From: a phage
Assembly: GCA_020318295.1 (NCBI GenBank)
Contig: GCA_020318295.1_4859.2
Strand: one strand, 5' to 3'
DNA: 25,872 nt
Shown: in pieces, positions 464 to 25,251 of the stretch
How positions within the stretch are numbered: position 1 is the first letter of the stretch
Layout of the letters: every line of letters begins with the position of its first letter
The notes under the pieces: model-generated
Databases searched by the model: none
The model's input: only the letters and a program-made list of their open reading frames with translations
What the model was told of the DNA's origin: nothing
Made by a program: the position numbers and the translations under genes

Positions 464-796
464 CTACTCATTGACCACCCCCAAACCACTTACAGTGGAT
501 GCTGCGGGGACATCCAGGTTATTCATCCATAACGACAGCTTGTTCATCTTCGCTGCGGTCTCTGGGCTAGGGTTATTGCGCAATTCACTTAAAGCCATCG
601 CATACTGGGTTGCCAGTATTTGACTGCCGTAGAAAGCACCACGGCTTACAGGCAACGCTTCGAAGCGTGCATCGAAATTGTTTGCTTGGTTAAGTTCTTT
701 AACAGTGCTCAGAATGGCTTCCTGCATTCGAAGTTCACCGTCACCTTCAAGGTCAGTTGCCTGACGCAATACCGCTATGTGATAGACTTTGGACAT
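464..796 (-). CDS. Hypothetical protein (110 aa)
   Basis: ATG at 796 with AAGGAG 9 nt upstream; lies downstream of promoter-like motif P1. Confidence 0.6.
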   Translation of the reverse strand: MSKVYHIAVLRQATDLEGDGELRMQEAILSTVKELNQANNFDARFEALPVSRGAFYGSQILATQYAMALSELRNNPSPETAAKMNKLSLWMNNLDVPAASTVSGLGVVNE

Positions 797-850
797 TTTA
801 ATTGCTCCTTAATACATGACATAAGTTCTGATTGAAACGTAAATTTCAGA

Positions 851-878
851 GGTTCACTGAGATAACATCTATCTGAAA
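851..878 (-). promoter_or_regulatory. Conserved promoter-like motif P1 (minus strand TTTCAGATAGATGTTATCTCAGTGAACC)
   Basis: One of four near-identical copies of the core TTTCAGATAGATGTTAT; sits just after a terminator and about 80 nt upstream of the ATG at 796. Confidence 0.45.
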
Positions 879-918
879 TAAAATAAAGCGTACCAGCCAC
901 CCCGAAGGATAGCTGGTA
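879..918 (-). terminator. Intrinsic terminator (hairpin plus U-run)
   Basis: Stem taccagc/gctggta around a loop containing CCTTCGG on the minus strand, followed by a T-rich run; downstream of the 1005-aa gene. Confidence 0.55.
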
Positions 919-11304: not shown

Positions 11305-11345
11305 TAAAAATAAAAAGAACCCTACCTAACCGAAGTTAGGTAGGG
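11305..11345 (-). terminator. Intrinsic terminator
   Basis: 10-bp stem ccctacctaa/ttaggtaggg with a CTTCGG loop on the minus strand, followed by TTCTTTTTATTTTT. Confidence 0.7.
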
Positions 11346-11351
11346 GACTAT

Positions 11352-11657
11352 TTAAGCGACAACGCGTTTGCGTTTATCGACGACTTTCTTGGTTGCTTTC
11401 GCTACCTTCTTAGTGGCAGGGATGGTATCAACCGGGGTGTCGGCTACCAAGGCACGTTCTACGCCGTCTGCGCGGAGAACACGCAGATTCTTCGCCTGTG
11501 GTAAACCTTTGAAAGTGATGGTCAAACCCGCGCGGAGACCTTGATACAGAAACCCTTGCAGGTTCAGTTTCTTGGCGGTTGCAGTGCTCTCACAACCTTT
11601 CTCCACGTACAGCAGAGTCGTACCTGCACGTTTGACAATTGTGTATTGTTTAGCCAT
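11352..11657 (-). CDS. Small basic protein with Lys-rich C-terminal tail (101 aa); possible DNA-binding protein
   Basis: Monocistronic between promoter motif P2 and its own terminator; C-terminus KKVAKATKKVVDKRKRVVA. Product is an inference. Confidence 0.6.
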   Translation of the reverse strand: MAKQYTIVKRAGTTLLYVEKGCESTATAKKLNLQGFLYQGLRAGLTITFKGLPQAKNLRVLRADGVERALVADTPVDTIPATKKVAKATKKVVDKRKRVVA

Positions 11658-11682: not shown

Positions 11683-11710
11683 GGTTCAGTAAAATAACAT
11701 CTATCTGAAA
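11683..11710 (-). promoter_or_regulatory. Conserved promoter-like motif P2 (minus strand TTTCAGATAGATGTTATTTTACTGAACC)
   Basis: Core identical to P1; 53 nt upstream of the ATG at 11657. Confidence 0.45.
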
Positions 11711-11719
11711 AGTCGTGCG

Positions 11720-12329: not shown

Positions 12330-12383
12330 TCTCTTAATTCCTCTTTACGTGGGTTGTTTCACATAAGTTAGTGGACTGATGTA

Positions 12384-12425
12384 AATAAAAAGGGACCTCC
12401 TCACCCGTGGGCAAGGAGGCGGGCC
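12384..12425 (-). terminator. Intrinsic terminator
   Basis: GC-rich stem cctcct/aggagg with extensions, followed by CCCTTTTTATTT on the minus strand; abuts the stop at 12426. Confidence 0.55.
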
Positions 12426-14850: not shown

Positions 14851-15669
14851 TTATAAGGTGCCGATTAGCTCCGTCACCGCTTTACGCTTATTCGCATCCG
14901 CAGACATATATCGACCTACTTGAACTTCGCGCCAAGTAAAGCCGTAATAAATATCGCGTGTGAGTAACGTATCTGCGTTTGACAGAACGACCTTATTGCC
15001 ATCGGCAGCTTGTTGTTTTAAAAGTTTCGCTAACTCGCGGTGGTCAGCTTGTGAAAATTCTTTGCTGTGATACTGCGCGTGTTTAGCCGTATCCGAAAGT
15101 GGGATGTAGGGCGGGTCGGCGTATATCACAGCGTTAGATGGGCACTTATTTAGGATGTCGCGGAAGTCCGCGCAGAGCAGCTCGACGTTGGTTTCCGAAC
15201 AACGTTTTGCCCACGCCAGAATTTCCTCTTCAGGGAAATAGACACCGTTCGGGTGTTGACCATAGGGCACGTTAAACCCACCCGACTGATTGTATCTGCA
15301 CAAACCATTGTAACCATGACGTGTAAGATACAGGAACATCGCGGCGCGCTGGAGATTAGGTTTCCCCGTGGTTGCTTCGCTGTTAAATCCCTCGCGTCGT
15401 TCCATGTAGAGACCGCGGTCCGTCCCATTTGCAAAGAGCGCCTTTGCTTCCAGAATCAGCGCTTCCGGACGATCGCGCGCCATGGTCAGTAACTCGATTA
15501 AGTCCGGGTTCGTGTCGCCGAGAATATAGTTCGGGTATTTAGTGTTTAAAAACACTGACCCTGCGCCCACAAAAGGTTCAACGAAATACTCAGCATCCGG
15601 AAACACCTGTAGCAGCTCGGGCAGTACACGACTCTTACCACCCATCCATTTTAAAATTGGTTTTATCAC
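14851..15669 (-). CDS. dam: DNA adenine methyltransferase (Dam-like, N6-adenine, GATC-type family)
   Basis: LKWMGGKSRVLPEL, FVEPFVGAGSVFLN (AdoMet-binding) and catalytic YADPPYIPLS (DPPY) match E. coli Dam from memory. Start is GTG at 15669, supported by the conserved LKW-GGK N-terminus. Confidence 0.9.
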   Translation of the reverse strand: MIKPILKWMGGKSRVLPELLQVFPDAEYFVEPFVGAGSVFLNTKYPNYILGDTNPDLIELLTMARDRPEALILEAKALFANGTDRGLYMERREGFNSEATTGKPNLQRAAMFLYLTRHGYNGLCRYNQSGGFNVPYGQHPNGVYFPEEEILAWAKRCSETNVELLCADFRDILNKCPSNAVIYADPPYIPLSDTAKHAQYHSKEFSQADHRELAKLLKQQAADGNKVVLSNADTLLTRDIYYGFTWREVQVGRYMSADANKRKAVTELIGTL

Positions 15670-16674: not shown

Positions 16675-16730
16675 TGTAATGCCCTCAAAAGGTATTGCTG
16701 TCACAACATGAGGATAATGCGTAAAAAGAC

Positions 16731-16758
16731 AAAAAATTAAGGGGTCCGAAGACCCCTT
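16731..16758 (-). terminator. Intrinsic terminator
   Basis: Perfect stem aaggggtc/gacccctt with a 4-nt loop (TTCG on the minus strand), followed by TTTTTT. Confidence 0.75.
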
Positions 16759-16763
16759 AATGA

Positions 16764-17844: not shown

Positions 17845-18210
17845 CTACATTACTGCAGAAGGTTTACGTGCCATGACTTTAAGTCCTGTTTCTCGTACCC
17901 GGATAGGACAGTTGTTCATGTAATCGATGCATGATTCAATTTTAAAGCTATGACGACATTTACCGTTGATAGAACGGTAGACGATTTCGTAATTCAGGCG
18001 CAGTGTATCAGCAACCCGCATCAATGTTTCGATAGTCACGGCCTTCTCACGTTCATTTTTAATCGCAGATATTTGTGACGGTGAGCAGCCTACTAATAAC
18101 GCAATGTCTTTCTGCGTAACGTCCTTCGCAGTGACACGAGTAATAATGTAAGAAAGACGAACCAAAAACGCTTTCTTTGCCAACACAACGGTTTGATGTT
18201 TAAAACGCAT
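17845..18210 (-). CDS. XRE-type helix-turn-helix transcriptional regulator (121 aa)
   Basis: TQKDIALLVGCSPSQISAIKNE fits the HTH_XRE pattern; AAGGAG 8 nt upstream; first gene downstream of promoter motif P3. Confidence 0.6.
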   Translation of the reverse strand: MRFKHQTVVLAKKAFLVRLSYIITRVTAKDVTQKDIALLVGCSPSQISAIKNEREKAVTIETLMRVADTLRLNYEIVYRSINGKCRHSFKIESCIDYMNNCPIRVRETGLKVMARKPSAVM

Positions 18211-18260
18211 TAGAATACTCCTTTAGATTAATAGTCGATTAGAGAGTTTAGTAGTAACTC

Positions 18261-18285
18261 TCACCTAAGTAATATATATCTGAAA
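18261..18285 (-). promoter_or_regulatory. Conserved promoter-like motif P3 (minus strand TTTCAGATATATATTACTTAGGTGAG)
   Basis: Variant of the P1/P2 core; sits between a terminator and the HTH regulator gene, 75 nt upstream of its ATG. Confidence 0.4.
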
Positions 18286-18329
18286 TTTAGTGGACTGGAA
18301 GCAAAAAGCATAAGACTGTTCCGATCTGT

Positions 18330-18366
18330 AAAAAAGACAATACCCTCTTACCCGAAGGTAAGAGGG
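18330..18366 (-). terminator. Intrinsic terminator
   Basis: Perfect 10-bp stem ccctcttacc/ggtaagaggg (18343-18352 and 18357-18366) with a 4-nt loop (TTCG on the minus strand), followed by a T-run. Confidence 0.75.
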
Positions 18367-18996: not shown

Positions 18997-19058
18997 TTTA
19001 TTCTTCCCCAAAAGTTTAATTAATTGTAGTGGTGTCACAATATAGCGACCAAACGTAA

Positions 19059-19094
19059 AGAAAAAAATAAAACAGGCACCCCGAAGGATGCCTG
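19059..19094 (-). terminator. Intrinsic terminator
   Basis: Stem caggca/tgcctg around a loop containing CCTTCGG on the minus strand, followed by TTTTATTTTTTTC. Confidence 0.6.
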
Positions 19095-19107: not shown

Positions 19108-19866
19108 TTACTCGATAGCCTTGCGGTTCTTCATTTCTGGTGTCCAGGTGTGCTCAATCCATGCTTCGATGACCGGCTTGATGCCCGGACTTTTGAAGAA
19201 TGCATTTAATGACGGCCATTCCCCTAACGCGTACTTGTTAGTGAAATTGAGCGACATTACACTGAAGCCTTCGCGTTTGTTAAACAACGCAGAAGGGGCC
19301 AAGGAATAAGACAACATGGCCTGCGGTGTATCTGATTCAGGACGCAGCAGTGTCATGCGGCGGGTGACACGCAGTTCAATATCGTTGAAGTTAGCCCGGA
19401 GGTCTTCTTTAAATTTGACACTGCGGAAGAAACGATTTCCTGTTTCGGATGCTTTATTTACCAATCGCTCGGTTTGCATCACGTCTTTAAAATACGCATT
19501 GATGCATTCTTCAATGAAGACATAGCGTGGTGCAGCTTCACGCAGTGCTTCTAAGTCGAACTCTTTCCACGCGGGGATGAGTTCAGGCTTACGGGCGATG
19601 TGTTTAAAGAACATCCTGGCTGAGACTTCACGCAGTGCTTTCAGCAACCCGCGAATAACATCTTCCCGCGTTGCGTTAGTTGCGAAGAACTCAGTCGTGC
19701 CATGTACAACGGTACCGCCTGTTTTAGCGCTGATGAGCTTATGCTCTATCATAATCGGCATCCCGCCCTTACCGATCATCTCTTCGTTATACAAAAATAC
19801 ATAACGATATTCGCCACAGGCAGTGGGGACGGACAGGAACTCTTTCTTCGTAGTATTAACAGTCAT
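19108..19866 (-). CDS. Hypothetical protein (252 aa)
   Basis: Monocistronic unit with promoter motif P4, a long structured leader and its own terminator. Confidence 0.6.
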   Translation of the reverse strand: MTVNTTKKEFLSVPTACGEYRYVFLYNEEMIGKGGMPIMIEHKLISAKTGGTVVHGTTEFFATNATREDVIRGLLKALREVSARMFFKHIARKPELIPAWKEFDLEALREAAPRYVFIEECINAYFKDVMQTERLVNKASETGNRFFRSVKFKEDLRANFNDIELRVTRRMTLLRPESDTPQAMLSYSLAPSALFNKREGFSVMSLNFTNKYALGEWPSLNAFFKSPGIKPVIEAWIEHTWTPEMKNRKAIE

Positions 19867-19957
19867 GGTATTTCTCTCTTAGTTTAAGTTGGTGAGTTTT
19901 AACCGACTCACAACGGCTTCTAGCATATGCTAAGGATGAAACGTAAATTTTGTACGT

Positions 19958-19984
19958 CTCCCTAAAATAATATCTATCCGAAAA
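19958..19984 (-). promoter_or_regulatory. Conserved promoter-like motif P4 (minus strand TTTTCGGATAGATATTATTTTAGGGAGACG)
   Basis: Variant core; the downstream TTTTAGGGAGA resembles the initiation region of single-subunit phage RNAP promoters (from memory). Confidence 0.4.
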
Positions 19985-20017
19985 ACAATAGAGTCGACCC
20001 ACTCCCGAAGGAGTGGG
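19981..20017 (-). terminator. Putative intrinsic terminator (weak U-run)
   Basis: Stem cccactcc/ggagtggg with a 4-nt loop (TTCG on the minus strand); the T-run is separated from the stem by 7 nt. Confidence 0.4.
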
Positions 20018-20023
20018 TATAAC

Positions 20024-24861: not shown

Positions 24862-25251
24862 TTAATAATCGTACAAAGGATACCGTGCGGAAATTTCTTT
24901 ACCTACCCAAAAAGTTAACCGTAGGTTATTAACTCTGCAGTGTGTTCGTACTGACGGGGCAATTGTCGCTTTAACTTTCGACGAACACGTACCCGCATCT
25001 ATTGGCTGGTACGTCTTGCGCTTTGTGTTAACGAGATAAAAGCCACCGCCTGGACACAGTTCAGAACGTCCGTAGTTAACCACGGCAAACTCACCATTTT
25101 CCACCGTCACGACTGGTTCATCTTTGTCGCTGAATTTCACAGGTGCGTCAGTTTCCCACATTGGTTTGTATTGCGGGAAGTCCTGAACAGTAAACGCGTA
25201 TACTGACGTAGTAACGCAAATTATAAACACAGCTAATACAGCACGCATCAT
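24862..25251 (-). CDS. Small secreted protein (129 aa) with signal peptide
   Basis: MMRAVLAVFIICVTTSVYA-FT is a signal-peptide-like N-terminus; GAGGA 7 nt upstream. Confidence 0.6.
   Translation of the reverse strand: MMRAVLAVFIICVTTSVYAFTVQDFPQYKPMWETDAPVKFSDKDEPVVTVENGEFAVVNYGRSELCPGGGFYLVNTKRKTYQPIDAGTCSSKVKATIAPSVRTHCRVNNLRLTFWVGKEISARYPLYDY

Follow-up and report, generated by a model that had tools for sequence, protein, structure and literature searches.

A conserved family of early-type promoter motifs in SPN3US-like jumbo phages, most likely read by the virion RNA polymerase

The window analyzed here, a 25,872-nucleotide stretch of phage DNA (GenBank assembly GCA_020318295.1, contig GCA_020318295.1_4859.2), carries four copies of a conserved motif on its minus strand. 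Our analysis leads us to regard these motifs, with good confidence, as early promoters of an SPN3US-like jumbo phage; the enzyme most likely to read them is the multisubunit virion RNA polymerase (vRNAP), which enters the cell together with the DNA. The motif class itself is already known, namely the vRNAP early promoters of phiKZ-like jumbo phages, and no new kind of system is involved. In the proposed mechanism, vRNAP injected with the DNA would initiate at the four motifs and, on the window's minus strand, transcribe small non-structural genes that include one for a helix-turn-helix (HTH) regulator, and three of the four sites would be insulated from upstream units by hairpin terminators. 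We infer the enzyme, the start site and the early timing from the better studied phages AR9 and phiKZ.

The four near-identical copies described in the initial annotation are confirmed by the search results. The 17-mer TTTCAGATAGATGTTAT, allowing up to 3 mismatches, has four matches in the window, all on the minus strand: two are exact (862-878 and 11694-11710), one has 3 mismatches (18269-18285) and one has 2 (19967-19983). Only 0.08 matches are expected by chance, and four were reached in none of 100 dinucleotide-preserving shuffles. A 50-nt weight matrix derived from the whole SPN3US genome returned the same four window sites with scores of 36.5-51.6 and no other site scoring 6 or more, consistent with the earlier remark that units such as the thymidylate kinase gene lack the motif. 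In all four copies a G stands exactly 7 nt past the ...TTAT/C block, and the spacer and G read ctcagtG (855), tttactG (11687), ttaggtG (18262) and tttaggG (19960). The G within GATGTTAT is a minority variant, the genome-wide consensus being AGATAGATATTAT or AGATATATATTAC. The predicted promoters and the first gene behind each are as follows.

Predicted early-type promoter 1: 855..884, minus strand; in order, an A/T-rich upstream part, TTTC, core AGATAGATGTTAT (862-874), 6 nt and the predicted +1 G at 855; score 38.5.
First gene of promoter 1: 464..796, minus strand; 110 aa, phrog_17751, orthologue of gp125; predicted 5' UTR of 59 nt.
Predicted early-type promoter 2: 11687..11716, minus strand; core 11694-11706, predicted +1 G at 11687; score 36.5.
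First gene of promoter 2: 11352..11657, minus strand; Lys-rich, 101 aa, phrog_12339, orthologue of gp112.
Predicted early-type promoter 3: 18262..18291, minus strand; core AGATATATATTAC (18269-18281), predicted +1 G at 18262; score 51.6.
First gene of promoter 3: 17845..18210, minus strand; 121-aa HTH_3 / Cro-C1-type DNA-binding protein (PF01381, E=2e-7), orthologue of gp101.
Predicted early-type promoter 4: 19960..19989, minus strand; core GGATAGATATTAT (19967-19979), predicted +1 G at 19960; score 41.7.
First gene of promoter 4: 19108..19866, minus strand; 252 aa, phrog_6820, orthologue of gp99; followed by a terminator at 19094-19073.

The 17-mer lies 65, 36, 58 and 100 nt from the start codons of the 110-aa, 101-aa, 121-aa HTH and 252-aa genes, respectively, so that the 50-120 nt given initially was roughly right. 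The 101-aa gene is monocistronic, because a terminator (11345-11320) comes right after it, and promoter 3 heads an operon whose first gene is the Cro/C1-type regulator. It had also been claimed that a terminator hairpin precedes every copy. This holds for three copies, listed below, but no terminator was detected ahead of the 11694 copy, which begins 10 nt past the upstream stop codon.

Terminator hairpin: 891..918, minus strand; TTCG loop followed by a T-run; ends the tail-protein unit, upstream of promoter 1.
Terminator hairpin: 18343..18366, minus strand; after the thymidylate kinase gene, upstream of promoter 3; conserved in Erwinia phage Asesino.
Terminator-like hairpin: 19997..20018, minus strand; ACCCACTCC-TTCG-GGAGTGGGT with a T-rich tail, upstream of promoter 4; read by eye, outside the range of the terminator scan.

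The terminators of the window (891-918, 11320-11345, 12395-12420, 16736-16761, 18343-18366, 19073-19094 and 19997-20018, all on the minus strand) are strikingly uniform, with G+C-rich stems, a T-run after the stem and a cTTCGg tetraloop in all except 12395-12420, which has a CACG loop.

By megablast the window is 95-98% identical, over its full length, to Seoulvirus Salmonella jumbo phages including SPLA3, phage 1252 and SPN3US. It corresponds to about 85-110.7 kb of SPN3US in reverse complement, genes gp87-gp126, and all of its long open reading frames are on the minus strand; the four motif copies are those preceding the gp125, gp112, gp101 and gp99 orthologues. The complete SPN3US genome (240,413 bp, 264 CDS, 93.6% coding) served as the reference. 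SPN3US is a phiKZ-like phage (Chimalliviridae) with two multisubunit beta/beta'-like RNA polymerases, which the literature treats as the hallmark of this phage group. Its vRNAP consists of gps 241, 218, 240, 42 and 244, was detected in virions, and travels in the head, from which it is ejected along with the DNA (PMC5694885). A packaged polymerase, as expected for the vRNAP early promoter class, is thus present in this phage, and all five of its genes lie outside the window. The earlier statement that the window holds no RNA polymerase gene agrees with the annotation.

The genome-wide search that had been suggested initially was carried out on SPN3US. The 13-mer AGATAGATATTAT with up to 2 mismatches has 31 matches in the genome, 27 of them on the plus strand. 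The 50-nt weight matrix, iterated on the genome until it converged and compared with first-order Markov genomes as the null, identified exactly 24 sites with scores of 22.8-52.2; the next best scores were 14.1 and 8.8, both from the reverse strands of two genuine sites, and the maximum in the Markov null was 10.9. All 24 sites are on the plus strand, the main coding strand of SPN3US, and 22 fall between genes even though coding DNA makes up 93.6% of the genome, so the motif is far from being equally frequent in coding regions, the outcome that would have spoken against a promoter. The motif family and its distribution are direct observations, and the picture of tens of intergenic copies co-oriented with non-virion operons is the one expected of vRNAP early promoters.

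The short consensus is AAaa-TtTc-AGATAGATATTAT-(6N)-G, and the full matrix consensus reads ..Tc.AAaa.aTtTcAGATAGATATTATcTa.gtGAg. A G is found 7 bases past the block at 23 of the 24 sites. Taking that G as +1, the nearly invariant AGATAGATATTAT block spans -19 to -7, TTTC occupies -23 to -20 and an invariant A stands at -29. The promoter element would then consist of an A-rich patch at about -29, TTTC, the AGATAGATATTAT block with a -10-like TATTAT at -12 to -7 within it, 6 nt, and the G as +1.

The two copies that are not intergenic score highly and lie within coding 3' ends, at SPN3US 25226-25238 (gp30, a PHIKZ068 homologue) and 174954-174966 (gp196). The next genes follow 267 and 91 nt further on, and the two copies may be internal promoters. 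The two weak reverse-strand matches, at SPN3US 15614-15632 (gp21/gp22, 8.8) and 191602-191620 (gp220/gp221, 14.1), are in divergent intergenic regions and face the minus-strand gene; they are probably a by-product of the partial dyad symmetry of the motif. Searches outside this phage group added little: an exact-match scan of IMG/VR with AGATAGATATTATCT gave, among the matches listed, mostly single chance ones in unrelated contigs, and a full-text literature search for TATATTAC returned irrelevant papers only.

The motif was compared with the promoters of the CHARACTERISED relatives AR9 and phiKZ. The Bacillus jumbo phage AR9 has 41 early promoters of the form AAATATATATTAT-(6N)-G(+1), mapped by dRNA-seq and primer extension, which are active without protein synthesis and were attributed to the virion RNA polymerase (PMC5312081). 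The early promoters of phiKZ and phiR1-37 likewise start 6 nt past an extended AT-rich element (PMC5312081). Between the SPN3US block (AGATAGATATTAT or AGATATATATTAC) and that of AR9, 11 of 13 core bases are the same, and the spacer to the G is identical at 6 nt. The SPN3US sequence thus has the AT-rich block near -10 that defines the vRNAP class, with a predicted start 6 nt further on. In both phages tens of copies precede non-structural operons, including those with non-virion RNA polymerase genes. The SPN3US-type motif differs from that of AR9 in having G instead of A or T at two core positions, and in adding an upstream TTTC with the A-rich patch and a downstream CT...GTGA. Furthermore, AR9 has a uracil-containing genome and a Gram-positive host, and its starts are mapped, whereas those of the SPN3US group are predicted from sequence.

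For phiKZ, PMC8244752 and PMC7598289, citing Ceyssens 2014, describe 28-32 early promoters that are AT-rich, combine an extended -10 with a T-rich stretch ahead of -19, and are read by vRNAP. phiKZ and SPN3US share the family, the two-polymerase strategy, a similar copy number and the presence of non-virion polymerase genes among the targets. The layouts, a -10-centred block with a T-rich upstream part, are alike when compared by description rather than base by base. According to PMC7598289, early-promoter motifs were predicted bioinformatically for all RNAP-encoding jumbo phages by Lavysh et al. (2016, Virology 495:185). From that account, the SPN3US motif is what such an approach would return, and it has probably been predicted before.

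The likeness to AR9 also bears on the possibility that Salmonella RNA polymerase, right after injection, uses the motifs as host sigma-70 promoters with a -10 only or with an extended -10. We consider this unlikely. TATTAT at -12 to -7 shares 5 of 6 bases with TATAAT, its distance to the conserved G is typical of sigma-70 starts, and the host sigma-70 holoenzyme could in principle also touch this block. Against this, the -35 region holds no conserved TTGACA-like hexamer (its consensus is '.a.Tc.'), and a sigma-70 consensus scan matched none of the four sites, with 16 matches in the whole window against 26.5 expected from shuffles. The missing -35 element and the negative scan led us to reject the sigma-70 reading. 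Additionally, conservation reaches much further than a -10 hexamer, taking in AGATAGA, TTTC and the invariant A at -29, the extended -10 position lacks TG, and the consensus is nearly that of the AR9 vRNAP promoter. Related phages develop without the host polymerase; the demonstrations of rifampicin independence concern phiKZ and AR9. Of the extended -10 option raised in the initial annotation, the -10-like geometry stands, but neither a -35 element nor a match to sigma-70 goes with it. The preference expressed there for promoters of a phage polymerase over ordinary sigma-70 promoters appears justified, given a consensus close to that of AR9 vRNAP and no -35.

A slightly less probable alternative is that the repeat acts mainly as the operator of a DNA-binding phage protein, such as an early Cro/C1-type HTH protein, or as operator and promoter at once. 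The core contains the dyad AGATA-N5-TATCT (5 bp), whose half-sites are spaced by one helical turn, like those of classical operators for HTH dimers, the HTH gene at 17845-18210 belongs to the regulon, and early transcription needs some form of shut-off. However, a symmetric operator needs no particular orientation, and every one of the 24 copies is oriented in the same way to its downstream genes. The dyad is broken in about 8 copies of the TTAC type, conservation is asymmetric, with an A/T-rich part upstream and a G at fixed distance downstream, and the consensus is shared with AR9. Two points nevertheless count against the vRNAP promoter reading, namely the 2 of 24 copies in coding DNA and the core dyad, which is superfluous for a mere promoter. 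The dyad (for instance at window 860-874, minus strand) may double as an early-shut-off operator for the HTH protein.

The identity of the downstream genes, likewise a direct observation, provides further support for vRNAP as the reader. The first genes behind the SPN3US copies (n=22) are gp5, 9, 22, 30, 31, 34, 55, 66, 76, 99, 101, 112, 125, 135, 175, 180, 184, 198, 209, 221, 249 and 263. Mass spectrometry has shown 86 proteins in the virion (PMC5694885, Supplementary Table 1). None of the 22 is among them (Fisher p=1.8e-4), and only 1 of 61 is when the first three genes are considered (p=5e-11). The 22 non-virion products include gp125, the orthologue of the 110-aa gene. The earlier proposal that the motif marks one temporal class fits this absence of virion genes among the first genes, and the class would be the early one.

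A sequence search against the PDB found a homologue in SPN3US for each of the five subunits that make up the phiKZ non-virion RNA polymerase (nvRNAP; 7OGP): gp23 = PHIKZ055 (5e-39), gp30 = PHIKZ068 (2e-6), gp34 = PHIKZ071 (2e-29), gp35 = PHIKZ074 (9e-39) and gp77 = PHIKZ123 (3e-20). A Pfam search of gp22, 30, 31, 76, 77 and 78 gave no family. Each of gp23, 30, 34, 35 and 77 is the first or second gene past a motif copy (sites 15614/15707, 23810, 28969 and 72486/72684), so that nvRNAP genes belong to the regulon as in other vRNAP early promoter sets; in phiKZ and AR9, too, the nvRNAP genes are early genes. The whole-genome weight matrix found no early motif ahead of the five SPN3US vRNAP genes. 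Since an enzyme cannot first transcribe its own genes, the polymerase that reads the motif must be present at injection, and in phiKZ and AR9 the polymerase present at injection is the virion RNA polymerase.

The same arrangement makes it improbable that the motifs are middle or late promoters for nvRNAP. The window also contains structural genes, and sequence by itself gives no timing, so such a role could be imagined. Yet the genes for all five subunits of that enzyme sit directly behind motif copies, no virion gene is the first downstream gene, and the nvRNAP promoters known elsewhere differ, with TATG in phiKZ and AACA-N6-TA/G in AR9. A separate TATG-bearing motif, described below, suits that role better. 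Least probable of all are promoters for a single-subunit (T7/N4-like) polymerase, or for a phage sigma factor redirecting the host core enzyme, as favored in the initial annotation: the motif is long and its copies are highly identical, like T7-type promoters, but the literature gives exactly two multisubunit polymerases for this group and, when the full genome was checked as had been advised, both annotated records of complete SPN3US listed split beta/beta' homologues as its only RNA polymerase genes, with no T7/SP6/N4-type enzyme and no sigma factor among the annotated products.

The vRNAP reading is also in keeping with the conservation of the motif, which was observed directly by aligning the region upstream of the gp125 orthologue in Salmonella phage SPAsTU and the Erwinia phages pEa_SNUABM_29 and Asesino (genus Erskinevirus). 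The coding flanks are about 71-73% identical, while AGATAGATnTTATCTnnGTGAA is invariant and the adjoining bases vary; the core of promoter 1 and the GTGAA are unchanged in all three relatives. The loop of the 891-918 terminator hairpin is kept in the same alignment. Across a syntenic stretch of 29 kb in Asesino, the motif precedes the HTH regulator gene (gp118) and the orthologues of gp112 and gp125. The copy upstream of Asesino gp127, the gp112 orthologue, retains the GATGTTAT variant, and for the gp99 orthologue there is a weaker copy one gene further upstream.

Additional support for the start site comes from the predicted transcripts. A stable stem-loop begins at -1 to +2 in about 8-10 of the 24, with the count peaking sharply at that offset, compared with a mean of 1.9 and a maximum of 7 in random sets of 24 positions (200 trials). 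The position of the stem-loop suggests, indirectly, that the predicted +1 G is correct, and the structure may serve as a 5'-end stabilizer. In the gp101-type leader it reads GAGAGTT-ACTACTA-AACTCTC (window 18242-18262, minus strand), starting from the predicted +1 G. The stem sequences at +1 differ among about 10 other SPN3US early leaders, and in Asesino the stem is kept and the loop has diverged. An Rfam search of the window at the gathering threshold found no known structured RNA.

A second motif was found in the leaders and elsewhere. The leaders of the gp99 and gp125 orthologues have an exact 14-mer, AAATTTACGTTTCA, in common, which in the gp99 leader is also the 3' arm of the +1 hairpin. 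We considered this 14-mer as a private repeat of the two leaders and rejected the idea, as it belongs to a second motif class. In SPN3US intergenic DNA, TAC-N15-TATG occurs 18 times; the other spacings from N12 to N21 occur 0-3 times each, apart from N13 with 7. A matrix for this motif has the consensus tttTTACGt-N13-T(A/G)TG and gives 62 matches against 14.7 in the null. About 35 of the SPN3US copies lie between genes. Their final G mostly stands 20-40 nt ahead of a start codon, and they precede the genes for DNA polymerase gp18, thymidylate kinase gp100, and gp87, 92, 104, 110, 186, 206, 215, 227 and 235. TTAC-N15-TRTG occurs 8 times in the window, always on the minus strand (1.9 expected), and 6 of these copies are intergenic, as follows.

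Second motif, TTACG-N14-TATG: 820..842, minus strand; in the leader of the gene of promoter 1, in tandem with that promoter; candidate start at the final G.
Second motif, TTAC-N15-TATG: 18309..18331, minus strand; between the kinase terminator and promoter 3, in a stretch absent from Asesino.
Second motif, TTACG-N14-TATG: 19924..19946, minus strand; downstream of promoter 4; present before the Asesino orthologue gp116.
Second motif, further copies: 12362-12384, 16702-16724 and 19036-19058, minus strand; one window copy precedes the thymidylate kinase gene.

A weaker copy lies at about 24083 of the window, and the T-run of a terminator is often continuous with the T-rich stretch at the upstream end of the second motif. 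In Asesino, 5 of 6 copies are intergenic and at orthologous places, and in the promoter 1 alignment the TTACG and TATGT of the 820-842 copy are invariant.

The middle promoters of phiKZ have an A-rich part and a TACT centered at -22, and its late promoters consist of TATG with the G as +1. The second motif resembles both, with TAC about 21-19 nt upstream of a TATG or TGTG at the putative start. Its upstream part is T-rich where that of the phiKZ middle promoter is A-rich, and its start is predicted from the sequence. We tentatively suggest that tttTTACG-N14-T(A/G)TG is a second, computable promoter class in Seoulvirus and Erskinevirus, perhaps the nvRNAP middle-promoter consensus, although we give this assignment slightly less than an even chance. 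The motif would account for the units that had been noted earlier as lacking the early motif. It stands in tandem with an early promoter in at least 5 units and, if the assignment is correct, such pairs would give continuous expression. Reviews regard the middle and late promoters of these phages as not predictable bioinformatically; a clean middle-promoter consensus would, if true, be new.

Among the SPN3US upstream gaps of at least 35 nt (n=114), 20 have the early motif, none of them heading a virion gene, and 27 have the second motif. Ahead of virion genes, 29 of 33 gaps have neither. TATG is present in 19 of these 33 gaps, a 5.5-fold enrichment, and resembles the phiKZ late promoter T(-3)ATG(+1). 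Its density is 0.011 per nt in virion-gene gaps vs 0.002 genome-wide, and it lies mostly 11-40 nt before the start codon. Often in the form GTATGA, it is found ahead of gp25, 41, 109, 170, 171, 173, 256 and 262, among others.

If the vRNAP reading is correct, four transcription units in the window and 24 genome-wide can be placed in the early class of a giant Salmonella phage that serves as a model. Members of this class would include the HTH regulator and several small uncharacterized proteins, which are candidates for host take-over functions. vRNAP would have nearly the same promoter specificity in a Salmonella phage as in the Bacillus phage AR9. For annotation the consensus should be useful, as it should for reporters and early-expression cassettes in genetic work on SPN3US and for in vitro studies of the virion RNA polymerase, which is still poorly characterized.

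Finally, several leaders share a box downstream of the predicted start. AATCGACTATTA is found at window 18229-18240 (minus strand) and at SPN3US 65455, 94280, 167592 and 223318, along with variants. At least 9 leaders, most of them belonging to early units, have it 11-19 nt before the start codon with AAGGAG directly after it. A 28-nt block, TAATCGACTATTAATCTAAAGGAGTATT, is 100% conserved in the leader of the Asesino regulator gene, where the surroundings have diverged. The AATCGACTATTA/TAATCGACTATTAATCTAAAGGAGTATT box may be a signal for translation, or else a site of processing or binding.
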